From NCBI GenBank assembly GCA_031255835.1, contig JAIRRT010000192.1:1-40716 (forward strand): a stretch of DNA of 40,716 bases, in the 5' to 3' direction. The notes beneath the pieces were generated by a model. It had not been told where the DNA came from. It saw only the letters and a list, made by a program, of their open reading frames with translations, and ran no database searches. Every line of letters begins with the position of its first letter. Within the stretch, counting starts at the first letter, position 1. The translations under genes were made by a program, and so were the position numbers. Below, piece after piece: positions 2,431-30,465 of this stretch. Source of the DNA: Bifidobacteriaceae bacterium. GTDB lineage: Bacteria > Actinomycetota > Actinomycetes > Actinomycetales > WQXJ01.

Positions 2431-4608
2431 CCGCGTGACAGTTATTGTGTATGGCAGTTGCGTGGTGTTGTTCGCACTTTGCGAGAAGTGGCTAATCGCG
2501 ATGTAGTAGGTCTGACCGGCAGAAAGGGTGCGACGGATTTCGAACTGCCGGCCGCCTGCACTGTCGTCATCGAAGGTGATGGTGTTTCCCAGTGAGTCAT
2601 ACAGGGTTCCAAAAACGTCACCCGACGCGGCAGAAGTGAATGTCCATGCAGTCGAGTTCGGAGGAGTGAAGCGCCACCAGTCGACATCGTCGCCTCGCCC
2701 AAGCACACCGTCTACTCGTCCAGAACTGCCGTTGAACGCGAACTCGCAGGTGGTGTTTGGCGTGTCCAAACAGTCATCCAAGTACGCCTCCTGGTTGACC
2801 ACGATGGTCGCGGTCTCCGAGCCAGAGGTCACCGTGACGTGGCCCGTCCTGGAGCCACCCGGATAGGCCTGCGCTGTGATGCTCATCACGCGGCTGTCCG
2901 TGCCAACCTGGCTGGCCACAAGCCACGGGCTAGTGGACGTGATGCTCCACGGCGCACCGCCACTGTCCACAAAGACACGCCTTGTGGCGCCATATTCGGG
3001 CACATCCCAGAAGTCCTGGGAAAGGTTTAGGCCGAAGCGAGTGGATGCCATATCGACTCGCACCGTGGCAGATTCTTCAGCTATCTCCTCCACAGTGATC
3101 CGTAGCGCGCCAGTCTTGGAGAAGAACGTCTCACCCTCGTGGAAGAACATGTTCCCTGATTGGCTGTAATTGGCCGGGAACAGAACCACCATGTTGGGGT
3201 CATTCCTGTCCTGGTATGGCACATGGCGACTGATGGCGACTGACCGGCTCTCCACTGTGTCGTAGTAGTCAACCCAGTAGGTCACCGATCCGCCGTACGA
3301 ATTGTCGATGATCCTAAGCGCCTGCGGATCGTCTCGATCCGGCGTGCGGGCGGGGGTCAGAGTGTATCTGGCACCGTTTCTTGGACCCATCACAGTTGTG
3401 TAGCCGGAGCCGTCCTCGATGACGCCCTCCATGTACTTCTGTTCGCCCATGATCGAGTGCTCCATCCTGATGGTGGAGGAGCCCATGATGTTGTAGATGT
3501 TGCCGTAGTTGGAGACCGAACAGGCATCCGTTCCCGTTTTTTCTCCGTCCATATGGCCGGCTGGGCACTGCATGCTGCCTGAGTGAGCCAGACCGAAGTT
3601 GTGGCCCATCTCGTGCACAAACGTGGACAGCGGATAGGTAGGTGCTCCGGTGTCGGCGTTCGCGCCGACGATGGCGTGCAAGGAGCCGGGTGAGGCGAAG
3701 TTGGTCAGCAAGTAGCCGACTCCGGCGTATCCCGTATAGCAGGATCCTGTGTTCTCATCGCTGGGGGACAGGATCACAAGGTGTCGCTGTGCAGAGTTAT
3801 AGGTCCAGTTGTAGGCCTGTTGCCCATCCGCCCTGATCGCGTCGGTGGCTTCAGACTGGATTGTGGCCAAGGCTCCGGTGCAGTGGGCTTCGCTCTGAAC
3901 TGCCACGACGTCGTTCCAGTTGTAGCTGAACCCGGAGACCGCGCCGCGCGATTCTGTGCCCCACCACTGTGAGATGCCGTTGACGTATGCGTCGAGCTGG
4001 TTCTTGGACCAGAACACTCCTCGCCCGTCCTTCGACATAAACACGAAGTGCAGCGTGTGCTGATACGGGCCAGGCAAGTCGGCCATGGCATCGGCCGGCG
4101 ATTCGAGCACTGTGGCATCTTGCACACTGACCGGCTCATCGGAGTCGGCTAGGGCATCCAGCAGCACGGAGGCAACTTCCTCGGACTCGTCCAGGGGTGC
4201 GTCATCGGACACCTCAACTGCTGGGGCCTGGTCGATGTCCGCCAGGGCCTCGGGGGGCAACTCAGCGATCAGATCGCCCGGCACCTCCACAACGGCCTGG
4301 ATGATGTCGCCAGATGCGACTGAGGCATCGACGCTGTCAGATTCGACGTCGATGAACTGCTCGGAGCCGAACATGATCACGGCTTCGGAACTGTCGGGGA
4401 CAACAAGGAACTGGCCGGTCAAGGCGACATCTACGCCATCGGCCACCAGGTCATCCACAATGCCAGCTGCTGGTGGCGCGGCGGATTGCGCGGCCAACGC
4501 CGGCAGCCCGCCAATTCCGAGGGCGAGCGCCGCGGCGGCCATGATCGAGGGGATACGGAAAGCTTTCGACGCACCAAAACGCGTCAGGGAGCCAGGGACA
4601 TTCTTCAT
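1..4608 (-). CDS. Secreted multidomain zinc metalloprotease (metzincin HExxHxxGxxH) with a PPC-like domain and at least 10 BACON/Ig-like repeats. The C-terminus runs off the left window edge.
   Basis: The ORF is absent from the supplied track because it has no stop codon in the window. My manual reverse-complement translation from ATG 4608-4606 stays open in one frame down to position 1 (1536 codons). I checked for in-frame TTA/CTA/TCA over 1-100, 841-900, 1201-1280, 1861-1980, 2341-2460 and 2860-3330 and found none. The N-terminus MKNVPGSLTRFGASKAFRIPSIMAAAALALGIGGLPALAAQS looks like a Sec signal peptide. The zinc motif HEMGHNFGLAH lies at 3583-3615. A PPC-like segment DDVDWWRFTPPNSTAWTFTS...AGQTYYIAISHF lies at about 2480-2700. 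It is followed by repeats of the pattern W.A.SD..WLTVTP.SG. Confidence 0.8.
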   Translation of the reverse strand, partial: MKNVPGSLTRFGASKAFRIPSIMAAAALALGIGGLPALAAQSAAPPAAGIVDDLVADGVDVALTGQFLVVPDSSEAVIMFGSEQFIDVESDSVDASVASGDIIQAVVEVPGDLIAELPPEALADIDQAPAVEVSDDAPLDESEEVASVLLDALADSDEPVSVQDATVLESPADAMADLPGPYQHTLHFVFMSKDGRGVFWSKNQLDAYVNGISQWWGTESRGAVSGFSYNWNDVVAVQSEAHCTGALATIQSEATDAIRADGQQAYNWTYNSAQRHLVILSPSDENTGSCYTGYAGVGYLLTNFASPGSLHAIVGANADTGAPTYPLSTFVHEMGHNFGLAHSGSMQCPAGHMDGEKTGTDACSVSNYGNIYNIMGSSTIRMEHSIMGEQKYMEGVIEDGSGYTTVMGPRNGARYTLTPARTPDRDDPQALRIIDNSYGGSVTYWVDYYDTVESRSVAISRHVPYQDRNDPNMVVLFPANYSQSGNMFFHEGETFFSKTGALRITVEEIAEESATVRVDMASTRFGLNLSQDFWDVPEYGATRRVFVDSGGAPWSITSTSPWLVASQVGTDSRVMSITAQAYPGGSRTGHVTVTSGSETATIVVNQEAYLDDCLDTPNTTCEFAFNGSSGRVDGVLGRGDDVDWWRFTPPNSTAWTFTSAASGDVFGTLYDSLGNTITFDDDSAGGRQFEIRRTLSAGQTYYIAISHFSQSANNTTQLPYTITVTREQTLALSRSLWTADYSAQQLSVNVSTDGSWSLVSAPDWITVTPASGLSGPVQIAVTQNDDQVRDGLVVFGSGNATATLTVLQSGPPMRVIPASITLPPQGGSETFHVSLLAGNTWTLVSAPTWVTVSPTSGVGGEVSVSAQANNGQARTGSIELTTASGYTQTVTVAQAPADLSLSRTAFVADSQGEAVAVEVISNVPWTVASAPAWVSVTPAAGSAGRTQVRVSVSANGTGANRTGAVTVTGGGLSATLSISQLEVDTLSVTPGLWAPYGSASTTTVNLTTNGRPWRVTSTPAWVTASPNSGTGSATVMLTARANPGTSLRSGIVAFASGAATAQVNIAQGPSPTVSVSRTTWSAPGAGGSVSATVTTNQADWTATSDAGWLTVTPTSGPSGGSFELQAQPNPSSTRTARVTVSAGGTATRTLTVTQATAPRPTLTLSRTTWSAAVGGATTTSRVTTNQASWTATSDASWLTVSPASGGTGVDMQITAAANVAAARTGHITVSVVGVTGSLTRQVTVNQTAAPRPTVTVSRITWAAPVGGGSASATVTTNQANWMAASGESWLSVTPSVGTSGQTIAITAAPNPGAARSGKITVTATGPAGTASRDVTVSQAAATITSSLLSWAPVSTGSVTTPRITTNQSSWSAVSDSDWLTMTPTSGVSDDEVQWVAERNTGARRVGTITLSAGQVTRTITVTQAAATTATVTLGRTTWSAPSSAGSVSLSVSTNRVLWSATTSEPWLTASDMEGMTGRDVVLSVSPNPTSATRKATFTVTAGTTSRSVTVTQAAGPAPLTPSQESWVAPADGGQIS

Positions 4609-4901
4609 TTAGGGCACATCCAATATCTTTGGTAATCAGGTCTAGCCGCAGCGCGACGCCGCACTCGGTTAGGCGCATGAACCACCATCCTGGAACGCAG
4701 TTACGTCCCCGGCGGCAGTGCCCCGCCCCCCGAATGCCTGACGACATCCTCGCCGTCGGCCACGCACATGCTACCCGCCCAACCCCTCACAGCCCACACC
4801 CCCCGCCGTGCTCAACAAAGTGTGGTCCCGTGCTCACCCCCCAACGGCGGCCGCCCCAGGCGCCAGCGGGGGGTGAAAGGAGGGGTGGAAGGCGGGTGGA
4901 A

Positions 4902-6377
4902 CTAGATTAGGAGGAGTTCGTATAGGGGGGTTTGGTAGTAGCGATTTATTACGTAGACCAGGGAGATTACTAGCCATGCGACTGGCATGATTCGGACCAG
5001 GCGCATGTACCAGCGGCGGGTCATTTTGGCCAGGGCAGGCATGACGGGGAGTAGAAGCGGGAGGACTGGCAGGAAGTATCTGCCCTGCAGACCCCAGATG
5101 GTTGGCGCGCCGGGCTCGGAGCCGACAATGTACATACCCAGCGCGGTCACCCAAACGAATCCGACCGCCACCACCAGCAGGAACACTCGGGTGCGGCGGG
5201 GCAATACTGACAGCCGGCCGTGGTAGCACAGCAGGTAGGCGGCGGCGCAGATCAGGATCGGCACGGCCACACCCAGCGGCAAGGGAGTGTCCATGGCACC
5301 GAAGTTTCCGGCAAAGGAGATTATGTTGTCGTTGCCGCGCAGAGAGATGAATTCCCTGGTCATCAGCAAGAACGCCATCGCCGGGTGGTGAAGCAGGTAG
5401 GAGAACTGGAAGCTCGAATCGCGGCTGACGCCATCGTCGTAGCCGGCGGACAGGCCCTGGCTCGCCACATACAGCCAGCCCAAAGCACACATTCCGGCGA
5501 ACAGAATGATGCCGGCCTTGGCCGCCCAGCCGAAGCGCCTCAGCAGCCGGCCTGCCGGAACCACCAGCAGCGCACCCACGCACACAACCACGCCCGGTTT
5601 GGTCAGCGCCACCGCCCCGGCCAGGCCAGCCAGCCCGGCCACCTTGAGCCAACCGATTGGGCCACGCTCGGCGGTGCGGCGCAGATACAAGGCGAGGCTG
5701 ATGAACAGGGCGGACAGCCCAATCGACATGGCGTCCCCGCCCAGTACCGCTGATTGGGCCACCGCCATCGGCAACAACAGCAGCGCCGCCAGCCCCCACT
5801 GCTTGTCTCGCCACAGCCAAACCGCCAACACGCCCAGTGCCGTGCGGACTAGCAGGGTCAGCAGGCGGGCCAGCATGAAGATCCCACCTGGGCTCATATT
5901 GACGGTTTCCCCGACGATGACGGCCACCGCCTGGGGCAGGTGCGCTATCGGGGAATAACTCGAGGTGAGCGCCGTATTCACGACTTCCGTATCGTGCTTG
6001 TTCAGGGGGGTGTTGAACACCAAGTCTGCCGTTTGGGACAAGGAGGTCCTGACCGTCGGGTCCCAGTGGATCACCTTCCCCTCGGCATTCTTCTCACCCG
6101 TTTCCACCAGGCTCTTTGGGATCTCCACGACTGCTTGGCCATCGACCTTTTGAGAGATGAAGTGCCCATGGGCAACCTCGTAGGCGCGGTACATGTGGAC
6201 CGGCTCGTCCGGGGCGGCATTGATGGGCACGCAGACCGCGAACACCGTGCCGAACAGCAACGACACCGCGGCGTAGAACCAACACGGCCGGTTCCAGATC
6301 CGCCAGAACAGCCGTGTGGGCCGGGATGCGTGAGCTGGGGGCGCGGGGGGGTTGGTTGAGGCGGTTGGGGCGGTCAT
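4902..6377 (-). CDS. DUF2142-like polytopic membrane protein (predicted GT-C-like glycosyltransferase or polymer-modifying enzyme)
   Basis: The track ORF is 4902..6461 (GTG start). I prefer the internal ATG at 6377 (MTAPTASTNPP...), which is preceded by GGAGG. The sequence contains many hydrophobic helices. After the first TM helix the motif APDEPVHMYRAYEVAHGHF resembles the PDExxHxxRAY signature I associate with DUF2142. It is the last gene of the minus-strand sugar operon. Confidence 0.6.
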   Translation of the reverse strand: MTAPTASTNPPAPPAHASRPTRLFWRIWNRPCWFYAAVSLLFGTVFAVCVPINAAPDEPVHMYRAYEVAHGHFISQKVDGQAVVEIPKSLVETGEKNAEGKVIHWDPTVRTSLSQTADLVFNTPLNKHDTEVVNTALTSSYSPIAHLPQAVAVIVGETVNMSPGGIFMLARLLTLLVRTALGVLAVWLWRDKQWGLAALLLLPMAVAQSAVLGGDAMSIGLSALFISLALYLRRTAERGPIGWLKVAGLAGLAGAVALTKPGVVVCVGALLVVPAGRLLRRFGWAAKAGIILFAGMCALGWLYVASQGLSAGYDDGVSRDSSFQFSYLLHHPAMAFLLMTREFISLRGNDNIISFAGNFGAMDTPLPLGVAVPILICAAAYLLCYHGRLSVLPRRTRVFLLVVAVGFVWVTALGMYIVGSEPGAPTIWGLQGRYFLPVLPLLLPVMPALAKMTRRWYMRLVRIMPVAWLVISLVYVINRYYQTPLYELLLI

Positions 6378-6482
6378 GGCACAGCGGTCCTCCACATCGA
6401 GAAAGATACGCCCCAAAGCCACCTGAACGGCCCAGTGCTCAAGGCGACCGAACGCTAGCACACCCGCCCCCCACCAGGCAGG

Positions 6483-7202
6483 CTAGTTGCGGCGGGCTTG
6501 TTGCCACCATTCGGCTTGAGGTGCCAGGGCTGCTGGCATCGGCTCGGGTGGTTCGCACAGCGGCGCCCCGTCACCGCTCGGCGCGGGGGCGGCGGCGTAG
6601 CAGGATTCGAGGGTCTGGATCGCTTGGGGTGGGATGCCTTGGCGGGTCATGCCCACCTGGTTGGCGCCGTGGAGACGGGCGGGGTTGCCGTGGACCTTGG
6701 CGAATGGGGGGACATCGCGCGTGACCACTGAGCCTTGACCCACCATCGCGCCGGGGCCTATCACCCGGAACTGGTGCACCACTGCCGCCGCACCTACGTT
6801 CCCGGCCTGCCCAAGGCGCACGTGACCAGCCAAAATGGCCCCGAGAGCGCAAGTTACGCCATCGGACAGCTCGACATCGTGGGCAAGTTGGACGCGGGTC
6901 ATCAGGAAGCAGGAGCCGCCCACGCGAGTCTGGCGCCGCGACCCGCGCGAGATGGTCACCTGCTCGCGGATCACGTTGCCGTCGCCAATCACCACCCCGA
7001 ACTCCCCCGCCTGCTCAATCCAGTCCGCCGGGTGCGGGTAGCCGCGAATCTCCGGCAGCCCGCCGATGACGCACCCCGCCCCAATCCAGTTGTCTGACCC
7101 CAGCCGCGTGCCCGCCGCGATCACCGCCCACGGTCCAATGACATTGCCGTCACCCATCTGCACGCCATCGCCCACGATGGCGGTCGGGTGGACCGTGTTC
7201 AC
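6483..7202 (-). CDS. LpxA-family acyl-[ACP]--UDP-N-acetylglucosamine acyltransferase homologue (left-handed beta-helix plus LpxA-type C-terminal helical domain)
   Basis: The 239-aa ORF has a GTG start at 7202 that overlaps the stop of the upstream oxidoreductase (GTGA). Several motifs are co-linear with E. coli LpxA as I recall it. These are VHPTAIV at the N-terminus, IGDGNVIREQVTISRGS (LpxA: IGDRNRIRESVTIHRG), QLAHDVELSDG (LpxA catalytic-His context AHIAHDCTVG) and AILAGHVRLG...VHQFRVIGPGAMVGQGSVVTRDVPPF. The post-helix segment HGNPARLHGANQVGMTRQGIPPQAIQTLESCY matches LpxA G.N..GL.RRGFS.E.I..I..AY. Confidence 0.8.
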   Translation of the reverse strand: MNTVHPTAIVGDGVQMGDGNVIGPWAVIAAGTRLGSDNWIGAGCVIGGLPEIRGYPHPADWIEQAGEFGVVIGDGNVIREQVTISRGSRRQTRVGGSCFLMTRVQLAHDVELSDGVTCALGAILAGHVRLGQAGNVGAAAVVHQFRVIGPGAMVGQGSVVTRDVPPFAKVHGNPARLHGANQVGMTRQGIPPQAIQTLESCYAAAPAPSGDGAPLCEPPEPMPAALAPQAEWWQQARRN

Positions 7203-8176
7203 CGCTCGCCTTGGGTGGCCGCGGACAGGAGTTTGCCCACCACTTCATGGGGTGGGGCTATGGAGGCTCGCTCGGCCGCGGCATCGCCCTGGCCGGACAG
7301 GAGTTCCAAGAAGCGGTCCAGTTGGGCCGCGAGGGGCTCGCGGCTGGTGACCAGCTCGGGGATCTCGATTACGGCCTGCTGGCGGTAGCCCCGGCCGTCT
7401 GGCCCAATCGCCTCGCCGGCAACGTGCTGGTAGATGATGACATCGCGCAGCAGCAGGTCAATCTCGATGGACCGCTCGAGTTCATAGACCACCAGTTGGC
7501 GGACCTTGCGCTGAGCCAACCGGCTGGCCGAGACACTGGCAATGGCACCGGTGTCGAACTGGATGGTTGCCTCGACCACGTCCTCTGCGCCGACCGCTGA
7601 ATGGGGCGAGAACGCGCCCACCACGCCGCTGGCATCCACGGCCCGCCCGCCGGCAAACCGCAGCGCCAGATCGACATCGTGGATGGCCAAATCCCAGCCA
7701 ACCCCGGTGACTATCCGAGGCGCGTAGGGGGAATGCCGCACTGACCGCAGCGCAATGGGCGCCTTGACCAGCGGCAACGCCGTCACAACGGCCGGATTGA
7801 AACGCTCCAGCAGCCCGCACATCAACGGGATGTCACGCTGCCGCGACACCTCCAGCAGTTGGCGTGTCTGGTCAATCGACGCAGTCAGCGGCTTCTCAAC
7901 CAGCAGCGGCAGGCCGGCATCCAGGACGTGGCGAGCTACGGCATCGTGCGCGGGGGTGGGGGCGGCGATCACCACGCCATCCACGCCTGCCAGCGATCCG
8001 ACATCGCCGCGCCATGTCGTGTTCCACCGAGCGGCCAGCGCTTGGCCCACCGCCTGGTCCGGATCAACCACGCCAACCAGCCGCGCGTCGGGGTGCGTCG
8101 AGATCACGCGCGCATGCAGCGACCCCATCTGACCGGCCCCCACCAGGAGCAACGCGGCCGGCGCCCGCCCGGTCAT
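7199..8176 (-). CDS. Gfo/Idh/MocA-family NAD-dependent sugar-nucleotide dehydrogenase (GnnA/WbpB/WlbA-like)
   Basis: The track ORF is 7199..8449. I chose ATG 8176 (MTGRAPAALLLVGAGQMGSLHARV...) because it overlaps the stop of the upstream aminotransferase by 4 bp (ATGA), and because the upstream extension is Arg/Pro-rich junk. The sequence has a Rossmann motif VGAGQMG and the family-typical EKP motif in PLLVEKPLT. Confidence 0.8.
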   Translation of the reverse strand: MTGRAPAALLLVGAGQMGSLHARVISTHPDARLVGVVDPDQAVGQALAARWNTTWRGDVGSLAGVDGVVIAAPTPAHDAVARHVLDAGLPLLVEKPLTASIDQTRQLLEVSRQRDIPLMCGLLERFNPAVVTALPLVKAPIALRSVRHSPYAPRIVTGVGWDLAIHDVDLALRFAGGRAVDASGVVGAFSPHSAVGAEDVVEATIQFDTGAIASVSASRLAQRKVRQLVVYELERSIEIDLLLRDVIIYQHVAGEAIGPDGRGYRQQAVIEIPELVTSREPLAAQLDRFLELLSGQGDAAAERASIAPPHEVVGKLLSAATQGER

Positions 8177-9270
8177 GCCAGCAGCCTTCGCACAGCGGCG
8201 ATGATCTGGGCGACATCGCCGGAACTCAAGGCTGGATGGACAGGGAGCGAGACGACTTGCGAGGCGAGGCGGCGCGCCACCGGGACATCGCACACTTGTA
8301 CACGCGGGTGGTTCAGATACACCGGATAGTCGAACACAACTTTCGGATAGTAGACCCCGCAGCCGATGCCGGCCTCCGCCAGTCCCTCCACGAACTGTTC
8401 GCGCGTGAGGCGGGCCTCGGGCGTCAGGCGCACGGTGTATTGGTGCCACACGTGCCCGCGGCCGGGCAGCGCCTGCGGGACAACCAGCCCTTCGATGCCT
8501 TTCAGACCCTGGTTCAGCGCGGCCGCATTGGCCTGCCGCGCCGAGACGTTGGCGGCGTAGCGGTCGAGTTGCGGCAACACCAAAGCCGCCTGGAGATCGG
8601 TCAGCCGATAGTTGTGACCAGCCATAACGTATTCGTAGCGCTGCCGCATGCCCTGGTTGCGCAGCACCTGTAGCCGCTCGGCAAGGTCAGCATCATTGGT
8701 GGTCACCATGCCGCCCTCGCCGGTGGTCAGATTCTTGGTCCCATAAAACGAGAAGCCGCCGATGCCGTAGCTCCCCACTGCTTTCCCGTTCAGCGTGGCG
8801 CCGTGGGACTGGGCTGCATCCTCCACAACGGCCAGGCGGTGTTTCTGGGCAATCGGCATGAGCTGGTCCATCGGCGCGGCTTGGCCATACAGATGTACCG
8901 GCATTAGCACGCGTGTTCGAGGCCCCAAGGCGGCCCCTACGGAAGCTGGATCAATGGCGAAATCCGCCTCTGCGACATCGGCGAACACCGCTGTGGCGCC
9001 AGCCTCCAGGATGGCGTTGAGGGTGGCAACAAACGTCAGCGGACTGGTGATGACTTCATCGCCCGGCTGGAGTTGCAGCGCTTCGAGGGACGCCACCAAG
9101 GCTGTGGTGCCGCTCGAGACCGCCACGGCGTGGGCGCAACCGGTCATCTCGGCGAAGCGCCGCTCGAACTCGGCCACCACTGCGCCCTGGGCCAACCGGC
9201 CGGAGCGGAGCACTTCAACGGCCATGGCGATGGAATCTTCGCCCAGGTCAACACGGGAAATGGGTATCAA
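8173..9270 (-). CDS. DegT/DnrJ/EryC1/StrS-family PLP-dependent sugar aminotransferase (GnnB/WbpE-like)
   Basis: The ORF is 365 aa with a TTG start at 9270, preceded by GGGAG 5 nt upstream. Family motifs are present: RFAEMTGCAHAVAVSSGTTAL, the VEDAAQSHGA Asp/Gln region, and the PLP-lysine context FSFYGTKNLTTGEGGMV. Confidence 0.9.
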   Translation of the reverse strand: MIPISRVDLGEDSIAMAVEVLRSGRLAQGAVVAEFERRFAEMTGCAHAVAVSSGTTALVASLEALQLQPGDEVITSPLTFVATLNAILEAGATAVFADVAEADFAIDPASVGAALGPRTRVLMPVHLYGQAAPMDQLMPIAQKHRLAVVEDAAQSHGATLNGKAVGSYGIGGFSFYGTKNLTTGEGGMVTTNDADLAERLQVLRNQGMRQRYEYVMAGHNYRLTDLQAALVLPQLDRYAANVSARQANAAALNQGLKGIEGLVVPQALPGRGHVWHQYTVRLTPEARLTREQFVEGLAEAGIGCGVYYPKVVFDYPVYLNHPRVQVCDVPVARRLASQVVSLPVHPALSSGDVAQIIAAVRRLLA

Positions 9271-9334: not shown

Positions 9335-10312
9335 GTGATCAGCAGCCAGACGGACCGCCCCCGGCGCAGCGCGCTGCTCGGGGCGGACCGGCGGGCCGGC
9401 ATCGCCGCTGTGTTGCGGTGGGTCGCCATCGTGGTGGTGGTTGGCGCGGCGGTTTGGGTGCTGGCATCCAACTGGGACGAGGCGCTGGCAACCGCCCGCG
9501 CGGTCCATCCACTGTCGCTTGGACTGTCGCTTTTGGTGCTGATGGCTGGATCTGCGGCGGCAACCATGAGTTGGCAGGTGCTGCTGGACGGGTTGGGCCC
9601 ACCGGTCGGCATACCTCGCGGATTCCAGATTTATCTTGTGGGGTTGCTGGGCAAATACGTACCGGGCTCTGTGTGGGCATACCTGCTCCAAATGGAGCTG
9701 GGAAAGCGCCATGGCGTGTCGCGCCCAAGGGTGCTGGCGGCGTCGCTGTTCGCTGCCGGTATCGGTGTGGTTGGCTCGCTGGTGCTTGGGCTGGCGGCGC
9801 TGCCGGCCATAAGCGGGGTTGACAGGCGGCTTTACTGGCTCTACGCCATCATCCCGCTCGGTCTGGCCGTGCTCAATCCGCGGGTGATGACGTGGATGGC
9901 CCGCCTGGTGTTCCGCCTGATGCGCCGCCCCGCGCCCGATGTCGCACTGCGCGGCCGGACGGTGGCGGCCGCCTTCGGATGTGTGCTGGTTGCATACGTG
10001 ATGTTTGGCCTGCACCTTTGGCTGCTGGCCAACTCCCTGGCCCAACCGACCATCTCCACTTTGGCGCTGTGCATCGGCGCATCAGGGTTGGGCATGACTG
10101 CCGGGCTATTCGCCTTCTTCATGCCATCCGGGCTGGGCGCGCGCGAGGCCGTGCTGGGCGCTGCCCTGGCCACCGTGCTATCCGTGGGCCAAGCCAGCGC
10201 GTTGGCGGTCGGTTCACGCATCATGTTCACCGTTTCCGATCTGGCGTTGGCGGGCATGGCCGCCGGCCTGGCCGTGCTGGCCGCCAGACGCACGCGGTCC
10301 CGGACCGTCTAG
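9335..10312 (+). CDS. UPF0104 / lysylphosphatidylglycerol-synthase-TM-type flippase-like membrane protein
   Basis: This is the C-terminal two-thirds of track ORF 8795..10312. The 5' part of that ORF is antisense to the DegT gene, so it cannot be real. The first plausible in-frame start after 9270 is GTG 9335 (MISSQTDRPRRSALL...). The protein has about 8 hydrophobic helices. The motifs LLGKYVPGSVW and MPSGLGAREAVLG match the P.G.G..E pattern of this family. The start coordinate is uncertain. Confidence 0.6.
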   Translation: MISSQTDRPRRSALLGADRRAGIAAVLRWVAIVVVVGAAVWVLASNWDEALATARAVHPLSLGLSLLVLMAGSAAATMSWQVLLDGLGPPVGIPRGFQIYLVGLLGKYVPGSVWAYLLQMELGKRHGVSRPRVLAASLFAAGIGVVGSLVLGLAALPAISGVDRRLYWLYAIIPLGLAVLNPRVMTWMARLVFRLMRRPAPDVALRGRTVAAAFGCVLVAYVMFGLHLWLLANSLAQPTISTLALCIGASGLGMTAGLFAFFMPSGLGAREAVLGAALATVLSVGQASALAVGSRIMFTVSDLALAGMAAGLAVLAARRTRSRTV

Positions 10313-10379: not shown

Positions 10380-11537
10380 ATGGACCAGATGACGCACCAG
10401 GACCGTGTTGTTCCGCTCGGCCAACCCACCGTCGGTCAGGCCGAACTCGACGCCATCCGGGACGTCTTCGACTCCGGCTGGCTGGCCGGCGCCGGCCCAA
10501 CCTGCCGGCAGTTCGAGACCGAGTTGGCCGCAGCATGCGGCACAGCCCACGCGCTAGCCACCGCCAATTGCGGATCGGCACTCCATTTGGCTTTGCAGGT
10601 GCTCGATGCCGGCCCTGGCCAAGAGGTGATTGTTGCCGATTACACCTTCCCCGCCACCGGCCACGCCGTCGCCTGGACAGGCGCAACGCCCGTCTTCGCG
10701 GACATCCTGCCCGGCAGTTGGTGCGTGGATCCCGCCGCGGTGACCGCCGCCATCACCCCCCGGACCGCCGGGATCATCGCCGTTGACGCATTTGGCCAGC
10801 CGGCCGGCTACGCCGAGTTGGCGGACATCGCCGCAGCTCACGGCCTGTGGCTCATAGAAGACGCCGCCTGCTCAGTAGGCGCTACCTATCAGGGCCGGCC
10901 AGCCGGATCCTTTGGAGACATCGCCGCCGTTTCATTCCACGGCCGCAAGGGCATCACCGCCGGCGAGGGCGGCGCGCTTTTGACCGATAACCCCGAATGG
11001 GCCGCCCGCGCCCGGCGCCTCCACACCTACGGCACAGAACCGGCCATCAGCCGCGAAGGCGCCACCGGGCTTCCAATACCGCACTTTGCCGAGATTGGCC
11101 GCAACTACCGCATGTCAGATGTCGCCGCAGCCATAATGCGCGTGCAACTGACCAGATTGCCTGACCTATTGGCGGCCCGCAACCAAACCGCTGCCCACTA
11201 TCGCGAATTGCTGGGCGACGTTCCGGAAATTGACTTGCCGAACGTCATCGGCGGGCGGACTCATTCCTGGCAATCATACGTGCCGACGATGGCGCCGCAT
11301 ATTGACCGCGATGCCGTCGCCGCACAATTGCGGGCCGAGGGCGTCCAATGCAATTTCGGAACGTATGCCTCTCACCTCTTGCCGGTGTATGAGTCTGCAA
11401 GCCGCTGCCCCGTCTCGGCCGATGTGTTTGCCCGGCATTTGGCCATTCCGATGCACGCCAATTTGACCGCCAGCCAAGTCGAGCGGGTCGCAGCCACCCT
11501 GCGGGCCGCCGTCACCAACCCAGCCAACCGGCGGTAA
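10380..11537 (+). CDS. DegT/DnrJ/EryC1/StrS-family PLP-dependent sugar aminotransferase (second copy)
   Basis: The ORF is 385 aa. Family motifs are present: GQAELDAIRDVFDSGWL, IEDAACSVGA, and the PLP-lysine context VSFHGRKGITAGEGGAL. An alternative ATG lies at 10389. Confidence 0.9.
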   Translation: MDQMTHQDRVVPLGQPTVGQAELDAIRDVFDSGWLAGAGPTCRQFETELAAACGTAHALATANCGSALHLALQVLDAGPGQEVIVADYTFPATGHAVAWTGATPVFADILPGSWCVDPAAVTAAITPRTAGIIAVDAFGQPAGYAELADIAAAHGLWLIEDAACSVGATYQGRPAGSFGDIAAVSFHGRKGITAGEGGALLTDNPEWAARARRLHTYGTEPAISREGATGLPIPHFAEIGRNYRMSDVAAAIMRVQLTRLPDLLAARNQTAAHYRELLGDVPEIDLPNVIGGRTHSWQSYVPTMAPHIDRDAVAAQLRAEGVQCNFGTYASHLLPVYESASRCPVSADVFARHLAIPMHANLTASQVERVAATLRAAVTNPANRR

Positions 11538-11562
11538 CCTGCCGCCCCCACCGAGGAGTCCC

Positions 11563-12501
11563 ATGTCCGCAAACCCCAGCAAGACGGTGTTCTTTACCGG
11601 CGGAGCCGGCTTCATCGGGCTGCATGTGCTGCCCATGCTGTTGGCCGAGGGCTACCACGTCCGGGTGTTTGACAACATGTTCCGAGGTGACAGGGCCGCC
11701 ATCGCCCGGCTGGAAGGGACCGGCCAGGTTGAGTTGATTGACCAGGACGTACGCTACGGCGGGGCTGTGCATGCGGCCATGAAGGGTTGCAGCAAGGTCA
11801 TCCACGCGGCCGCTGTTTCGATCAACAAGAGCCAGGCTGACCCATACGAATCGCTTGACATCAACCTGATTGGCGAGCACAACGTCTTCGCCGCGGCTGT
11901 TGATCATGGCGTGGACCGGCTGGTGTTCTGCTCCAGCGCGTCAGTTTATGGCGATCCAACCCACCTGCCCATGCATGAGGACGATGTCCTCGATCCGCTC
12001 ACTCCGTACTGCATTTCCAAGCGTGCCGGCGAGGATCTGTTGCGGTATTACGAGCGCCGCGCCGGGTTGAACTGGATTGCGTTGCGGTTCTTCAACGTTT
12101 ACGGCCCGGGGCAAAAGACAACCGCCTATTACACGTCAGTCATCAACCATTTTGTGAACAGGTTGCGGTCTGGCGAACCGCCCGTCATTGACGGCAAAGG
12201 CGAACAGTCGATGGATTTCATTCATGTCCACGATATCGCCCGGGCCGTTGTGCTCGCTTTGACGGCTGAGCAGGGCAATATGGCGATCAATATCGGCACA
12301 GGGATAGACACTTCGATTGCTGAGCTTGCCCGAATCCTGATCGAGGCTGCCGGGGCGGACGTGGAGCCGATTTTCAACCCGCGTGACGTCCTGGTCTCCC
12401 GCCGGGCTGCCGATATCACCAGGGCCAAAGACGTGCTCGGATTCGCCCCATCGATTGCCGTGCGCGACGGCATGACAGACCTGATCCGGAGCGGCGGATG
12501 A
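11563..12501 (+). CDS. Extended-SDR NAD-dependent sugar-nucleotide epimerase/dehydratase
   Basis: The ORF is 312 aa, with GAGGAG 5 nt upstream of the ATG. It has the motif TGGAGFIG (GxxGxxG) and the catalytic YxxxK as YCISK preceded by CSSASVYG. Confidence 0.85.
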   Translation: MSANPSKTVFFTGGAGFIGLHVLPMLLAEGYHVRVFDNMFRGDRAAIARLEGTGQVELIDQDVRYGGAVHAAMKGCSKVIHAAAVSINKSQADPYESLDINLIGEHNVFAAAVDHGVDRLVFCSSASVYGDPTHLPMHEDDVLDPLTPYCISKRAGEDLLRYYERRAGLNWIALRFFNVYGPGQKTTAYYTSVINHFVNRLRSGEPPVIDGKGEQSMDFIHVHDIARAVVLALTAEQGNMAINIGTGIDTSIAELARILIEAAGADVEPIFNPRDVLVSRRAADITRAKDVLGFAPSIAVRDGMTDLIRSGG

Positions 12502-13034
12502 GCCCCGCAACGCCCCCATCCACTGGCGCGCCAACCGGCGGGCCCACCGCCGGGCCCACGCCCACCTCTGACCCCCCACCCACCCGGCCGGGTCTGCCGC
12601 CCAACCCTTACAACCCGCTGGCCTGGATCATTGGCGAGCCCTCCATAGGTGAGGGCACCTGGATTGGCGCGTTCACCGTCATCGACGGCTCCGGAGGACT
12701 GCAGATTGGCTCGGGGTGCGACATCGGCGCTGGCTGCCAGATCTACACCCACTCCTCCGCACGGCGCTGCGTGTCCGGCCGGCGCTACGGCGAAGTTGAC
12801 CGCAAGCCGGTGACCATGGGCGACAGGGTCTTCATGGGCCCCGGCGCCATGGTGTTCATGGGTGTCGAGGTGGGCGATGAAGCCGTCATCTGCGCAGGTG
12901 CCATGGTCACCCGCTCGGTTCCCCCACGCACAATCGTGGCGGGCGTGCCAGCCCGGCCAATCGGCATCGTCCAATTCGATGACCCGGCCAGCCCGCGATT
13001 TGTCCTCACCGACCCACCAACTGGGCAGATCTGA
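12498..13034 (+). CDS. Hexapeptide-repeat (LbH) acyl/acetyltransferase with a Pro-rich N-terminal extension
   Basis: The ORF is 178 aa. Its ATG overlaps the stop of the epimerase gene (ATGA). Hexapeptide repeats are visible: IGEGTWIGAFTVIDGSGGLQIGSGCDIGAGCQI and VFMGPGAMVFMGVEVGDEAVICAGAMV, followed by VAGVPARPIG. The first 40 aa or so are low-complexity Pro/Thr/Gly. Confidence 0.8.
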   Translation: MSPATPPSTGAPTGGPTAGPTPTSDPPPTRPGLPPNPYNPLAWIIGEPSIGEGTWIGAFTVIDGSGGLQIGSGCDIGAGCQIYTHSSARRCVSGRRYGEVDRKPVTMGDRVFMGPGAMVFMGVEVGDEAVICAGAMVTRSVPPRTIVAGVPARPIGIVQFDDPASPRFVLTDPPTGQI

Positions 13035-14227
13035 TGCGCATCGCCGTTGTCAACAACTTCTTCCCGCCGCGGGTGGGTGGCTCGTCCCACCTGTCCCACA
13101 CCCTGGCCACGCGCTACGCCCAGGCCGGCCACAAAGTCCTGGCCGTCACCGCCGCCTACCGCGATGCCCCCACATTCGAGGCGTTCGATGGCGGTCACAT
13201 AGTCCGCCTCCCGGCTTTCCAGATCCCCGAGACCCCTCTGGCCTTGAACTTCGACATCAGCTTTGCCACCAGGCCGTCGCTGCCGCGCCGGTTGGCTCGG
13301 ATCCTCGACGCGTTCAAGCCCGACGTCATCCACCAACACGGCCAGTTTTTCGACCTGACCTGGGCAAGCGGACTGTATGCGCGGCGGCGCGGCATCCCGA
13401 CGCTGCTCTCGGTGCACACTCGGCTGGAGAACCCGACGGCGCTGTATCGCGGCGCACTGCGGTACATCGACGCCTGCTTGGTGCGCCCGGCTCTGCTGGC
13501 GTACCGGCCAAACATGGTGGTCATGGACCGGCTGATGCGCAGCTACATCACCGAGCGCTACCCCGGCGCCTACCGCGAACTGTTCGATATCCCCGTCGGG
13601 ATTGACCCGGTGGCGGCGGCAGGTGGGGACGGCGGCGTTGGGCGGGCCAAGCTCGGGCTTGAGCCGGATGTGCCGCTGATTGTCTCGGTGGGCCACGTCA
13701 TCCCGCTGCGGGATCGGGTTGCCCTTGTCGAGGCCCTGCCGCATGTGCGCCGCCACATCCCGCAGGTCAAGCTGGCCGTCATCGGCGAGGTGTATTACGA
13801 CGTGTTCTCCCGGCGCGCGGCCGAGCTTGGTGTGTCCGATTCCGTCATCCAAGTTGGCCCGGTTCCCAAGGCTGACGTGCCGCATTACCTGGCCGCCGCC
13901 TGGGTGGAGAGCCACGAGCAGGGCTACGGCCTGGGCACCGCGACGCTGGAGGCGATGGCCGCCGGGGTGCCGGTGGTGGCCGCCGCCCGGCCCGACAACT
14001 TTGCGCCACTGGCGTTGACTGACCGCCGCGAACTGTTCCTCGCCCCGCCTGGCGATACCCCCGCCCTCGCCGCCGCGCTGACCGAGGCGCTGTCCAACCG
14101 GGCTCTGGCCGGGCAGGTTGGGCTTGCCGGCCAGGAGTTCGCCTTGGCCCACTTCACACTCGATGCCGTCACAAACCAGCACCTCGACGTGCTTGGCGAG
14201 TTGGCCAAGGAGGCGAGCACAGCGTGA
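13034..14227 (+). CDS. GT4-family (GT-B fold) glycosyltransferase
   Basis: The ORF is 397 aa. Its ATG overlaps the upstream stop (TGATG). The N-terminus MRIAVVNNFFPPRVGGSSH and the C-terminal motif ESHEQGYGLGTATLEAMAAGVPVVAA are typical of Glycos_transf_1/GT4 enzymes. Confidence 0.85.
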   Translation: MRIAVVNNFFPPRVGGSSHLSHTLATRYAQAGHKVLAVTAAYRDAPTFEAFDGGHIVRLPAFQIPETPLALNFDISFATRPSLPRRLARILDAFKPDVIHQHGQFFDLTWASGLYARRRGIPTLLSVHTRLENPTALYRGALRYIDACLVRPALLAYRPNMVVMDRLMRSYITERYPGAYRELFDIPVGIDPVAAAGGDGGVGRAKLGLEPDVPLIVSVGHVIPLRDRVALVEALPHVRRHIPQVKLAVIGEVYYDVFSRRAAELGVSDSVIQVGPVPKADVPHYLAAAWVESHEQGYGLGTATLEAMAAGVPVVAAARPDNFAPLALTDRRELFLAPPGDTPALAAALTEALSNRALAGQVGLAGQEFALAHFTLDAVTNQHLDVLGELAKEASTA

Positions 14228-15411
14228 ACCGCACCGATATTGCTGTGGTGGGGGCCGGCATCGTCGGCTTGGCAGTGGCGGAGGCTTTGTCCCGTCAAGG
14301 TCGCCATGTGACAGTACTGGAGAAGGAACCGACGATGGCGGCCCACCAGACTGGCCGCAATTCTGGGGTTATCCATTCGGGCATCTATTACGCCCCGGGC
14401 AGCTTGAAGGCGCGGTTGTGCCGGGCGGGGGCGGCGTCGATGGCGCGGTTCGCTGAGGAGCACGGTGTTGCTCGCGGACCGAGCGGCAAGGTGATTGTGG
14501 CGACGCGGCCGAGCGAACTGCCTGCTCTGAGGGCGCTGGCGGCCCGGGCCGGGGCCAACGGGATCGAGGCGCATCAGGTGACGCGCGCACAGGTGGCCGA
14601 ACTTGAGCCGCATGTTGGCGCCATCGCCGGCCTGCATTTGCCCGGCACGGGGACCATCGATTACTCCCAGGTTTGCCAGGCGTTGGGCGCGCTGGTGGTC
14701 AGCCAGGGCGGCGAGGTGCTGCTGGGGCAGCGGCTGGTGGCGGCGCGGACGGTGGGCGAGACGGTCGAGATCAGCCTGGCGGACGGCTCGCGGCTCGCGG
14801 CGAATGGCCTGATCAACTGCGGTGGGCTGCATTCGGATGAGATCTGCTCGGCCTGCGGCGTGGACCCAGGCGTCCGGATTGTGCCGTTCCGGGGCGAGTA
14901 CTACGAGCTGGCGCCTGACAGGCGGGACCTGGTGCGCAGCCTGGTCTATCCGGTGCCTGACCCGCGGTTCCCCTTCCTCGGGGTGCATCTGACGCGCATG
15001 GTTGACGGGTCGGTTCACGCCGGGCCGAATGCTGTGCTGGCGCTGGCGCGGGAGGGGTACACCTGGCGCGATATCCAGCTGGACGATCTAGCCGGCACGC
15101 TGACATGGCCCGGATTCTGGCGCCTGGCCGCGCGCTATGCACCCGCCGGCGCCAAGGAGATGGCCCGCTCCGCATCGATGCGCCTGTTCGCCGCGTCCCT
15201 GGTCCGCTTGGTGCCGGAGATCGAGCCCAGCGACCTCCGCCCAGCCCCCGCCGGAATCCGCGCCCAAGCCCTAACCGCCACCGGCGCCCTAGTAGACGAC
15301 TTCCTAATCCGCCGAGCCCCCCGCCAAATCCACGTCCTAAACGCCCCCTCCCCAGCAGCCACAGCCGCCCTAGAAATAGCCCACCACCTATCAACCCAAT
15401 CCCCCACCTAA
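14224..15411 (+). CDS. lhgO: FAD-dependent L-2-hydroxyglutarate oxidase/dehydrogenase (LhgO/YgaF family)
   Basis: The ORF is 395 aa. Its GTG start overlaps the GT4 stop (GTGA). It carries the FAD motif DIAVVGAGIVGLAVAEAL, then HQTGRNSGVIHSGIYYAPGSLKA, FRGEYYEL and FLGVHLTRMVDGSVHAGPNAV, which match the LhgO family as I recall it. The gene symbol is given at family level only. Confidence 0.75.
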   Translation: MNRTDIAVVGAGIVGLAVAEALSRQGRHVTVLEKEPTMAAHQTGRNSGVIHSGIYYAPGSLKARLCRAGAASMARFAEEHGVARGPSGKVIVATRPSELPALRALAARAGANGIEAHQVTRAQVAELEPHVGAIAGLHLPGTGTIDYSQVCQALGALVVSQGGEVLLGQRLVAARTVGETVEISLADGSRLAANGLINCGGLHSDEICSACGVDPGVRIVPFRGEYYELAPDRRDLVRSLVYPVPDPRFPFLGVHLTRMVDGSVHAGPNAVLALAREGYTWRDIQLDDLAGTLTWPGFWRLAARYAPAGAKEMARSASMRLFAASLVRLVPEIEPSDLRPAPAGIRAQALTATGALVDDFLIRRAPRQIHVLNAPSPAATAALEIAHHLSTQSPT

Positions 15412-30000: not shown

Positions 30001-30465
30001 GTTCACCGGCTGGTCTTCCCGCGCCAACAGCGCGAGCCTGGCCTGGCTATACCGGACTACTTCGACCAGGTGAGGGACGTCATCGGACTCCAAGTTGTGA
30101 CTGTGGGGCCGGCAATTGGAGAGGCTGCACGCGATCTGTATGAGGCGGGGCACTACCGCGACTACCTGGAGCTTCATGCGGTTGGGGCGGGGTTGACCGA
30201 GGCGCTCGCGGACTATTGGCACGCACGGATGCGGCGCTGGCTTGGGATCTCGGGTGGGCGGCGCTACTCGTTCGGCTATCCTTCCTGCCCGGACCTTGCC
30301 GGACGCCGGAGCGTGGTTGCCTTGACCGAGGCGGGGCGAGCCGGGGTGGAGCTGACCGAGACGGACATGCTGGTTCCGGAGTTCTCGACGGACGCGATGA
30401 TCGTCCATCATCCGGCGGCGAGGTATTTCTCCGTGGCTCGGCGCGGTCCGGACAGTGAGGAGTAG
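27061..30465 (+). CDS. metH: Cobalamin-dependent methionine synthase
   Basis: The ORF is 1134 aa. The Hcy-binding N-terminus is LVADGAMGTELM...GGCCGTTPAH. The pterin-binding region is GERANAQGSKAFRE...DLSVDM. The B12-binding region contains VLATVRGDVHDIGKNLV (DxHxxG) and GMSGLL. The C-terminal AdoMet-activation domain contains YSFGYPSCPDL. A low-complexity linker lies at about 29560-29720. Confidence 0.92.
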   Translation: MAGVIPSLRAVLGERVLVADGAMGTELMAAGLTPDDFAGHEGCYEYLNISRPDIVAGVHAAYLDVGVDAVETNSFGANPSNLGEYDLADRIEELSRRAALIARDVADSYDTRRWVFGSLGPGSWLPSLGATTFTRLRDAFETQATGLLDGGVDLLLIETAQDLLAAKAAVIGARRAKSRAGRDVPIIVQITVETTGTMLLGTETMAALTSLAGLGIDGMGLNCATGPDSMREHLSQLAAHLPVTSVMPNAGMPELTDQGAVYHLTPTQLADALDEFTAELGCGIVGGCCGTTPAHLREVVKRVSGRELNRPAMDPRPSAGWVSSLFTAVPLSQDVSYLAVGERANAQGSKAFREALAGDDLDRCVDLARAQAARGAHVIDLSVDMVGRDGPADMTALAARLATATSLPIMVDSTDPPTHVAALEQLGGKSILNSVSFEDGGARLAELLPHIREHGAAVVALTIDETGQAREAAHKVQVAQRLIDALVSGGVDVRDVIVDPLTFPVGAGEETKRDGLETLAAIRAIRAAHPQVHIGLGVSNISYGLAPAARLAVNSVFLDMARQAGLDVAIVDPARIEPLDRIDPQLRQAAVDLIEDRDRPAALAQLLAAGAPPPQTDGAGPPLSPPERLTARIVQGRTAGLEEDMAEALTQLSAVEVLDGVLLPAMAEVGKAFGEGRLQLPFVLQAAEAMKAAIAWLQPHLPRRDRTKGTVVLATVRGDVHDIGKNLVDIVLSNNGYRVINLGIKQPLSAMLDAAQEHGAQAIGMSGLLVKSVEVMRQNLAEMNARGRLWPVILGGAALTRQYVDGELRGLYQGEVRYAKDAFEALGVLADWEGAGGGVGGESDVGEVGEVGERVDADDAGDSSDQPPTQPVPPRSRGSVPAAPVPSPPFFGARLAEGIALSDYLPHLDERALLTGRFGLRAVTGDPRSVEEVIEEEGLPRLRALIDKLRAERLAQARVAYGFFAAHAEGDALLIEDGQTVHRLVFPRQQREPGLAIPDYFDQVRDVIGLQVVTVGPAIGEAARDLYEAGHYRDYLELHAVGAGLTEALADYWHARMRRWLGISGGRRYSFGYPSCPDLAGRRSVVALTEAGRAGVELTETDMLVPEFSTDAMIVHHPAARYFSVARRGPDSEE

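Follow-up and report, generated by a model that had tools for sequence, protein, structure and literature searches.

Does a Gram-positive actinobacterium perform the acylation that opens lipid A synthesis? The question is raised by three genes on the minus strand of a 40,716-nucleotide stretch of DNA from a member of the Bifidobacteriaceae (contig JAIRRT010000192.1 of assembly GCA_031255835.1), referred to below as the window. They encode a DegT-family aminotransferase, an oxidoreductase of the Gfo/Idh/MocA family (Gfo) and a left-handed beta-helix (LbH) acyltransferase that resembles LpxA. The first-pass annotation, made from the sequence alone, had proposed that the three enzymes form a fatty-acylated 3-amino sugar nucleotide that feeds a glycolipid other than lipopolysaccharide (LPS) or a cell-envelope glycan. 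The analysis presented here points in another direction. Judged from sequence comparisons, the LbH protein is most likely a 3-N-acyltransferase for UDP-GlcNAc3N, the 3-amino derivative of UDP-N-acetylglucosamine (UDP-GlcNAc), and is predicted to be an N-acetyltransferase. The whole module most likely represents a known type of pathway, as a widespread variant that is still uncharacterised and probably misnamed, and not a case of lipid A chemistry in a Gram-positive organism.

Inspection of the minus-strand sequence confirmed that the three genes are coupled by 4-bp overlaps of start and stop codons. In GGCATGACC the Gfo start codon ATG shares bases with the DegT stop codon TGA (8176-8173), and in GCGGTGAAC the LbH start codon GTG does so with the Gfo stop codon TGA (7202-7199). 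The start of the middle gene at ATG 8176 gives a product close in length to its homologues (322 residues); a longer open reading frame (ORF) of 416 codons (7199..8449) that would extend 277 nt into the DegT gene was rejected. The assignment of the three proteins to their families also held, with Pfam matches for each of them and the expected EKP motif present as VEKPL in the translation of the Gfo/Idh/MocA protein.

By its sequence and its modelled fold, the LbH protein is to be regarded as a member of the LpxA superfamily. Its best sequence matches in the PDB are LpxAs, ranging from 4EQY (E 3.6e-30) to the E. coli enzyme (E 5e-27), with identities to LpxAs of 32-36%. Residues 3-204 are co-linear with LpxA. 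PF13720 (Acetyltransf_11), the 82-position model of LpxA 'domain 2' (residues 187-262 in E. coli LpxA), was matched with 40.6 bits against a gathering threshold of 24.5, at model positions 1-41 only, whereas E. coli LpxA matched positions 1-82 with 100.8 bits. The second half of the domain, including the region with R258, a basic residue of LpxA for which a contact with the acyl carrier protein (ACP) has been suggested, is absent from the LbH protein. Moreover, the net charge of the C-terminal region averages an acidic -1.55 in the LbH family vs +4 in E. coli LpxA. The hidden Markov model searches proposed earlier thus gave a divided result: the hexapeptide-repeat model and half of PF13720 were found above threshold, but the scores of both LpxA equivalog models, NF003657 and TIGR01852, were below their cut-offs (170.9 vs 226 and 156.2 vs 231.05 bits, respectively). 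The AlphaFold model of the protein (pLDDT 95.8, 141 sequences) contains helices at residues 182-187, 192-204 and 224-238.

The active site is preserved. The QLAHD sequence, put forward earlier as the context of the catalytic histidine, carries the dyad His108-Asp109, and 141 sequences have His108, Asp109 and Gly126 without exception. In E. coli LpxA the corresponding functions are assigned to the dyad His125-Asp126, to the oxyanion residue Gly143 and to the UDP-GlcNAc contacts H144, H160, Q161, N198 and R204 (PMC6286764). The equivalents of His144, His160, Gln161, Asn198 and Arg204 are invariant or nearly so in the LbH family, and Gly126-His127, His143-Gln144, Asn181 and Arg187 are conserved in the window protein. 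An assignment as an orthologue of WbpD/WlbB was rejected, with the WlbB structure 3MQG being matched in phmmer at E 1.2e-8 over about 50 residues only and in Foldseek at E 3e-7 with a TM-score of 0.49.

The closest characterised relative of the LbH family is Pcryo_0615 of Psychrobacter cryohalolentis K5, a protein of 189 residues that was deposited in the PDB as 'UDP-N-acetylglucosamine acyltransferase' (8E62) under a title naming an N-acetyltransferase required for diacetamido-2,3-dideoxy-D-glucuronic acid, i.e. for the UDP-GlcNAc3NAcA pathway. It was reportedly described as an N-acetyltransferase by Hofmeister et al. in Protein Sci in 2023, the activity being taken here from the PDB title and that reference. 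A profile of the actinobacterial family scored 160.7 bits on 8E62 over 184 residues with few gaps, the best single-domain score, and 157-160 bits on LpxAs. The identities of typical family members amount to 39-41% with Pcryo_0615 and to 31-36% with LpxAs. The C-terminal segment GNPARLHGANQVGMTRQGIPPQAIQTLESCY, formerly taken to be specific for LpxA, aligns to Pcryo_0615 too. A neighbour-joining tree was calculated from 17 actinobacterial LbH proteins, 16 Pcryo_0615-like proteins and four LpxAs, with E. coli LpxD as outgroup and 100 bootstraps. The three groups were monophyletic in 100, 97 and 100 of the replicates, respectively, and the actinobacterial family was sister to the Pcryo_0615 clade in 91 and grouped with LpxA in 9 of them, forming a separate clade that is not nested within the Pcryo_0615 clade. 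Additionally, the gene of a Pcryo_0615 homologue (73% identical) is located between a Gfo and a DegT gene, behind that of a UDP-sugar 6-dehydrogenase; judged by sequence, this would be the same trio, in a pathway that has been studied biochemically. The LbH protein hence most likely stands closer to an established sugar N-acetyltransferase than to the enzyme of lipid A synthesis. Of the outcome named in the first-pass annotation as refuting its proposal, about half has thus been observed: a short-chain N-acetyltransferase is the nearest characterised relative, but the LbH protein keeps a portion of the LpxA C-terminal domain.

The residues of the donor cleft, numbered here as in E. coli LpxA, lead in the same direction. 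In that enzyme the acyl chain occupies an inter-subunit cleft that is lined by Gly173 and capped by His191, and the exchange G173M alone shifts its preference from C14 to C10. At position 173 the LpxA glycine corresponds to Met in 100% of the actinobacterial family sequences, the window protein with its Gln apart, and in 95% of the Pcryo_0615 clade. The glycine at position 155 is replaced by Leu (53%) or Met (45%) in the family, together 98%, and by Leu (52%) or Met (42%) in the clade, the Phe/Tyr at position 162 by Arg (73%) and by Arg/Lys (87%), and the Ile/Phe at position 152 by Asn (94% and 95%). Accordingly, the triplet 155/162/173, which is G-F-G in E. coli LpxA, reads M-R-M or L-R-M in 88 of 120 family sequences, and these are the commonest triplets of the Pcryo_0615 clade as well. 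A second set of residues, Gln73, His99 and His122, holds the 3-hydroxyl group of the acyl chain in E. coli LpxA (PMC6286764). Throughout the family Q73 is replaced by E and H122 by Y (Tyr in 92%; the Pcryo_0615 clade has His in 84%, with Tyr in Pcryo_0615 itself), and R205 is not conserved; the window protein carries E51 for Q73, Ser85 for H99 and Gln105 for H122. The cleft residues, along with the acidic and shortened C-terminus, speak for a donor site that the family has in common with its acetyl-CoA-using relative Pcryo_0615, in place of the long hydrophobic channel of LpxA.

The three-gene association is not confined to the window. More than 1,800 relatives of the LbH family, whose proteins have about 230 residues, were retrieved at E <= 1e-5; the best 120 of them are all of this type, and a scan of one genome per species revealed at least 493 loci. 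The top 80 of these belong to Rhodococcus, Micromonospora, Lentzea, Saccharothrix, Umezawaea and many Microbacteriaceae, and also to Cellulomonas, Actinotalea, Blastococcus, Nakamurella, Ilumatobacteraceae and Solirubrobacterales. A set of 83 related loci was fetched with 10-kb flanks each, and the survey called for in the first-pass annotation was thereby extended across the Actinomycetota: in 74 of the 83 loci, from many actinobacterial orders, the Gfo and DegT genes are found within 10 kb of the LbH gene, with the DegT homologue (56-67% identity) adjoining the Gfo gene. Both are usually divergent from the LbH gene, and the co-linear, overlapping order of the window recurs in locus L083. Because of this recurrence, the linkage of the three genes is not due to chance.

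The conserved linkage also bears on the acceptor. The LbH protein might act on a different substrate, such as a sugar supplied by a second DegT/SDR module, a hydroxyl group or an acceptor that is not a sugar, and share with its neighbours only the final glycan. A second module with its own small LbH protein does lie next door in the window, and nine of the 83 loci contain the LbH gene without Gfo and DegT genes within 10 kb. This explanation is nevertheless considered highly improbable, since the start/stop overlaps bind the LbH gene to both partners in the window, the linkage extends to loci that lack the second module (e.g. L002), the residues contacting UDP-GlcNAc are kept, and a homologue of the Pcryo_0615 type has the same partners.

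The nature of the partner enzymes narrows down the substrate. The best PDB match of the Gfo protein is 7BVJ (97 bits, E 1.2e-26, residues 11-295), which represents GnnA, the UDP-GlcNAc 3-dehydrogenase of Acidithiobacillus ferrooxidans (Table S3, PMC13274773), and the GnnA/GnnB-like logic recognised earlier is borne out by this match. The best NCBIfam match is the archaeal UDP-GlcNAc 3-dehydrogenase NF040723, with 126.6 bits below the cut-off of 450. The WbpB and WlbA structures gave no match at E <= 1e-5, and the identity with the Psychrobacter-type Gfo amounts to 24% over 83 residues, with nothing beyond the Rossmann fold. A WbpA-like 6-dehydrogenase was detected neither in the window nor in 81 of the 83 loci. 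A uronic-acid pathway of the WbpB type was rejected in view of the GnnA-type Gfo and the lack of a 6-dehydrogenase in the window, and the same two findings argue for UDP-GlcNAc rather than a uronic acid as the substrate. We therefore propose, by similarity, that the Gfo protein is a GnnA-like UDP-GlcNAc 3-dehydrogenase with predicted oxidation at C3. The DegT protein, which by sequence would pass as a generic sugar aminotransferase and whose PDB matches include WbpE (197 bits), is proposed to be a UDP-3-keto-GlcNAc 3-aminotransferase catalysing a GnnB/WbpE-like step.

The contig is actinobacterial, with a monoderm host, because it encodes an MshC equivalog (540 bits vs a cut-off of 485) and a PAC2 protein and because the close homologues of the cluster genes all come from Actinomycetota; the earlier assignment of the genome is upheld. 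A tblastn search with E. coli LpxC, LpxB and FabZ yielded no match in the window or in the 83 loci with their flanks, and the only match to E. coli LpxD in the same sequences was the LbH gene itself. The absence of lpxC and lpxB from the window noted earlier thus stands, and that of lpxD holds apart from this match. These data leave a practically negligible probability for a true LpxA of a diderm or of a contaminant that takes part in lipid A synthesis. In favour of such an origin, public pipelines call the homologues 'acyl-ACP--UDP-N-acetylglucosamine O-acyltransferase' or 'UDP-N-acetylglucosamine acyltransferase', but the missed equivalog cut-offs, the MshC equivalog, the PAC2 protein and actinobacterial synteny on the same contig, the lack of lpx and fabZ neighbours and the actinobacterial clade recovered in 100 of 100 bootstraps led to its rejection.

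More weight has to be given to the possibility that the enzyme is LpxA-like in its choice of donor, using, like the LpxA of Leptospira or Acidithiobacillus, a medium- or long-chain acyl-ACP for the N-acylation of UDP-GlcNAc3N and thus seeding a non-LPS glycolipid that is flipped by the PF03706 membrane protein encoded nearby. The LpxA-type sequence and fold, the dyad and most of the UDP-sugar contacts, the partial PF13720 match, the GnnA-like partner dehydrogenase and the name of the PF03706 family, which refers to a lipid flippase domain, are all compatible with it. In addition, several observations weigh against the acetyltransferase assignment. The top Foldseek matches of the model are all LpxAs (best 6OSS, TM-score 0.83, root-mean-square deviation 2.8 Å, E at the 1e-13 level), the window protein passes the PF13720 threshold, which Pcryo_0615 fails, and it is 33.5% identical to Pcryo_0615 and 35.5% to E. 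coli LpxA. The tree is a simple neighbour-joining tree with only four LpxAs and one outgroup. The window protein is also an outlier of its family, with Ala138, Phe145 and Gln156 (A-F-Q) at positions 155/162/173; its nearest relative, a metagenomic protein with 65% identity, has A-F-M, and the cleft may be roomier than the family norm. Finally, the re-oxidation of NADH with 2-oxoglutarate by a GnnA-like Gfo, a component of the pathway outlined below, is suggested by analogy.

These points have to be set against the missed equivalog cut-offs, the sister-group relationship to an N-acetyltransferase clade, the ruler Met and the Leu/Met at 155 of the family, the lost 3-hydroxyacyl-binding residues, the acidic, truncated C-terminal domain, and the lack of an ACP-motif ORF and of lpxC, lpxB and fabZ. 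The model superposes best on LpxA with its histidine dyad in place, but its ruler residues are not those of LpxA; with Gln at the ruler position and both His99 and His122 lost, the window protein is still not LpxA-like as far as its sequence can tell. Long-chain fatty acylation by the LbH protein is therefore not supported and is judged improbable, and the fatty-acylated sugar nucleotide envisaged in the first-pass annotation is not supported in view of the tree, the equivalog scores and the replacement of both the channel glycines and the 3-hydroxyacyl contacts. The same low standing is assigned to an LpxA-like use of acyl-ACP, which we consider unlikely. If fatty acylation were true, it would represent lipid-A-like chemistry in monoderms.

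A further element bearing on the donor was found in 12-13 of the related loci, in which a cassette encodes an acyl-CoA reductase of the LuxC family, an acyl-protein synthetase of the LuxE family, an AMP-forming acyl ligase and a FabG-like SDR protein. It occurs in Micromonospora, Saccharothrix, Umezawaea, Actinosynnema, Prauserella, Actinokineospora and Yinghuangia and in Lentzea alba, between the PF03706 gene or a GT4 gene and the LbH gene (L080:3507-11683; likewise in L058, L067, L009, L026, L030, L046, L061, L064, L071, L077 and L005). The cassette hints at fatty-acid chemistry and thus counts with the points listed above. No such cassette is present in the window, and a search of 18 loci for the ACP attachment-site motif found none in a plausible ORF. 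The LbH proteins of cassette-bearing loci keep Met/Leu155 and Met173, by which an opened cleft was ruled out in these proteins, with His over-represented at positions 99 and 122. The cassette and this over-representation hint that in some subclades the donor may be a (hydroxy)acyl group different from acetyl. That the family, or subclades such as the one of the window with its A-F-Q triplet or those linked to the cassette, attach a (hydroxy-)fatty acyl group of C6 or longer to UDP-GlcNAc3N, with a new envelope glycolipid being flipped by the PF03706 protein, appears doubtful.

Somewhat less remote, though still rather unlikely, is the same pathway with another short acyl group from CoA, for instance (R)-3-hydroxybutyryl, propionyl or another C3-C6 group, which may differ between subclades. 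Extrapolation from the ruler logic of LpxA suggests that a bulky residue at position 155 leaves room for about C4-C6, the window protein combines Ala at 155 with Phe at 162, and the loci with the FabG-like and acyl-ligase genes are those enriched for His at 99 and 122. On the other hand, no relative with matching cleft residues has been characterised other than an N-acetyltransferase, the window contains no acyl-activating gene, and both histidines are lost in its LbH protein.

We consider it probable that the module converts UDP-GlcNAc via UDP-3-keto-GlcNAc and UDP-GlcNAc3N into UDP-2,3-diacetamido-2,3-dideoxyglucose (UDP-GlcNAc3NAc) for an envelope glycan. In this pathway, whose substrates and products are all predicted, the GnnA-like Gfo enzyme would oxidise C3 of UDP-GlcNAc in the cytoplasm, the DegT enzyme would turn the 3-keto sugar into UDP-GlcNAc3N with glutamate as amino donor, and the LbH protein would use its His108-Asp109 dyad to N-acylate the 3-amino group so introduced. 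A short donor is expected, most probably acetyl-CoA; the GnnA-like Gfo and the lack of a 6-dehydrogenase make UDP-GlcNAc3NAc, or another short N-acyl form, the likeliest product. The sugar would then be incorporated into a cell-envelope glycan by way of the GT4 glycosyltransferase and the PF03706 (flippase-like) and DUF2142 membrane proteins.

The L-2-hydroxyglutarate oxidase LhgO may have a part in the same pathway. Its gene closes the plus-strand glycan operon of the window, and 29 of the 83 loci have an LhgO gene no more than 10 kb away from the LbH gene, with or without the second amino-sugar module. To our knowledge, no case of LhgO clustered with gnnA/gnnB has been described. WbpB re-oxidises its bound NADH with 2-oxoglutarate (PMC10622841). 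Because of this property and the clustering of LhgO, a local recycling is conceivable in which LhgO would return 2-hydroxyglutarate to 2-oxoglutarate, assuming a WbpB-like re-oxidation of NADH by the Gfo protein.

The features of the locus are compiled in the following table.

Coordinates of the core module and its neighbours in the window
Feature	Position	Strand	Evidence or remark
DegT/DnrJ/EryC1-family pyridoxal phosphate (PLP) aminotransferase	8173..9270	-	365 aa; PF01041 392.7 bits
Gfo/Idh/MocA NAD-dependent oxidoreductase	7199..8176	-	325 aa from ATG 8176; PF01408 + PF22725
LbH acyltransferase	6483..7202	-	239 aa; LpxA/Pcryo_0615 superfamily; Hexapep + PF13720
ATGA start/stop overlap, DegT stop and Gfo start	8173..8176	-	sequence inspection
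GTGA start/stop overlap, Gfo stop and LbH start	7199..7202	-	sequence inspection
DUF2142 polytopic membrane protein	4902..6461	-	PF09913 171 bits; 21 nt downstream of LbH gene
PF03706 (LPG_synthase_TM, flippase-like) membrane protein	9335..10312	+	39.6 bits; divergent from DegT gene
Second amino-sugar module	10380..14227	+	four genes: DegT2, SDR, small LbH, GT4
DegT2 aminotransferase	10380-11537	+	second amino-sugar module
SDR epimerase/dehydratase	11563-12501	+	second amino-sugar module
Small LbH acetyltransferase	12498-13034	+	second amino-sugar module
GT4 glycosyltransferase	13034-14227	+	second amino-sugar module
L-2-hydroxyglutarate oxidase LhgO	14224..15411	+	NF008726 equivalog 514.9 bits vs cut-off 299

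The DUF2142 gene is probably the last gene of the minus-strand operon, and DUF2142 genes lie near the LbH gene in about ten other loci. A sequence search of the PDB gave no match for the DUF2142 protein, which may, as we infer, act as an extracytoplasmic glycosyltransferase. For the PF03706 protein, the same type of search gave no usable match; the start of its gene is uncertain, with GTG 9335 agreeing with the length of the homologues. A PF03706 homologue is encoded near the LbH gene in about 50 of the 83 loci, often adjacent to it and in L002 with a 4-bp overlap. The roles assigned to both membrane proteins are putative. The second amino-sugar module accompanies the core in about 27 of the 83 loci. 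Its SDR protein is 70-83% identical across genera and has its best PDB match in 6WJB/6WJ9, which we take to be the UDP-GlcNAc 4-epimerase PelX, and that of the small LbH protein is 8VR6. Frequent neighbours in the set of loci encode GT2 and GT4 proteins, a second DegT/SDR/LbH module, DUF2142, DUF6541, YfhO-like and Wzy_C proteins, rhamnose genes and GlfT2-like transferases. This set of neighbours is the machinery of wall-glycan synthesis.

Several side observations were made in the related loci. In Pseudonocardiaceae, a Cof-type HAD-IIB phosphatase (L025:10699-11508; about 18 loci) or an F420-type luciferase-like oxidoreductase (L037:11568-12443; about 13 loci) is encoded directly beside the LbH gene. 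A Pcryo_0615-like LbH protein of 219 residues (L087:4430-5089) has a GH25 lysin with PG_binding_1, an AAA_24 protein and many small ORFs as neighbours; the region looks like a phage or prophage, and this location suggests that the Pcryo_0615-like clade includes phage-borne glycan-modifying acetyltransferases.

Elsewhere in the window, positions 1900-4800 form a stretch of about 2.9 kb with a G+C content of about 0.60 vs 0.66 and no ORF above 130 codons on either strand, in which no Rfam, tRNA or tandem-repeat match and no similarity to the related loci was detected. The ORFs that border it (98-874 and 1274-1879) are without a Pfam match. Between positions 28000 and 33000 the GC skew is strongly positive, reaching +0.19, over a region spanning metH (27061-30465) and the genes of a HAD hydrolase and a PG_binding_1 protein. 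On the plus strand, 35324-39652 encodes a protein of 1442 residues with GH3-type beta-glucosidase/xylosidase matches in two sets, the domain order of which looks duplicated or rearranged.

The assignment of the LbH family has consequences for genome annotation. Hundreds of actinobacterial genomes carry its members under LpxA-type names, and surveys of LPS or of diderm organisms that rely on LpxA or PF13720 profiles would count them as false positives. The evidence argues for renaming these proteins as putative UDP-GlcNAc3N N-acyl(acetyl)transferases. Moreover, the module predicts that an envelope sugar derived from 2,3-diamino-2,3-dideoxyglucose is common well beyond Streptomyces, in Rhodococcus, Micromonospora, Saccharothrix/Lentzea, Microbacteriaceae, Cellulomonas and Acidimicrobiia, and the recurrent LhgO suggests that GnnA-type 3-dehydrogenases recycle NADH with 2-oxoglutarate, coupled to a local repair of 2-hydroxyglutarate. 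Wall polymers of this kind have recently been shown to be receptors of umbrella toxins (PMC13274773).

Literature searches on LpxA homologues or GlcNAc3N in Actinobacteria returned nothing specific, and no publication on the LbH family was found. Known systems offer several points of comparison. The LpxAs, including the UDP-GlcNAc3N-specific, N-acylating LpxA of Leptospira interrogans (PDB 3HSQ), have the fold, the dyad and the first half of the C-terminal domain in common with the LbH family, and in organisms with GlcN3N-containing lipid A they are partnered by GnnA-like and DegT enzymes, as is the LbH protein here. They differ in their complete PF13720 domain, their lpxC, lpxD, lpxB and fabZ neighbours, their diderm hosts and their separate clade. 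Pcryo_0615 shares with the LbH family the motifs AHD, PPE (loop), GH, HQ(R), G(M/L)G and GMG as well as C-terminal helices 1 and 2, but it ends after helix 2, whereas the actinobacterial proteins are about 35 residues longer, with a third helix and a conserved Trp. Its PF13720 score of 13.5 bits is below threshold, compared with 36-41 bits for the actinobacterial proteins, and its cleft triplet is M-R-M compared with A-F-Q in the window. Furthermore, it is accompanied by a 6-dehydrogenase of the WbpA type and by a Gfo of the WbpB type that acts on a uronic acid, in contrast to the GnnA-type Gfo of the window and the lack of a 6-dehydrogenase.

The WbpB/WbpE/WbpD enzymes of Pseudomonas and their WlbA/WlbC/WlbB counterparts in Bordetella follow the same logic of 3-oxidation, transamination and N-acetylation. 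WbpD, WlbB and also UtrJ belong to an LbH subfamily other than that of the window protein, and the Wbp, Wlb and Utr pathways act on a uronic acid and involve two further enzymes missing from the window, a 6-dehydrogenase and a 2-epimerase. The wall teichuronic acids of Streptomyces griseus and S. antibioticus contain GlcNAc3NAcA and ManNAc3NAcA, and the Utr cluster responsible for their synthesis encodes a dehydrogenase resembling GnnA (UtrB), an aminotransferase (UtrA) and an acetyltransferase of the WlbB type (UtrJ; PMC13274773). With the Utr cluster of S. griseus, the three-step logic is therefore already known in an actinobacterium. The window module differs from it by the LpxA/Pcryo_0615-like LbH protein, by the absence of uronic-acid steps and by the company of PF03706 and LhgO. 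GnnA and GnnB of A. ferrooxidans again combine a GnnA-type dehydrogenase with a DegT partner, as in the window, but supply UDP-GlcNAc3N for lipid A, which is not the downstream use in the window. An archaeal pathway to UDP-GlcNAc3NAc(A) is reportedly known from work on Methanococcus. The archaeal pathway represented by NF040723 starts from UDP-GlcNAc and not from a uronic acid, and in this respect it is the counterpart of the pathway proposed here for the window.

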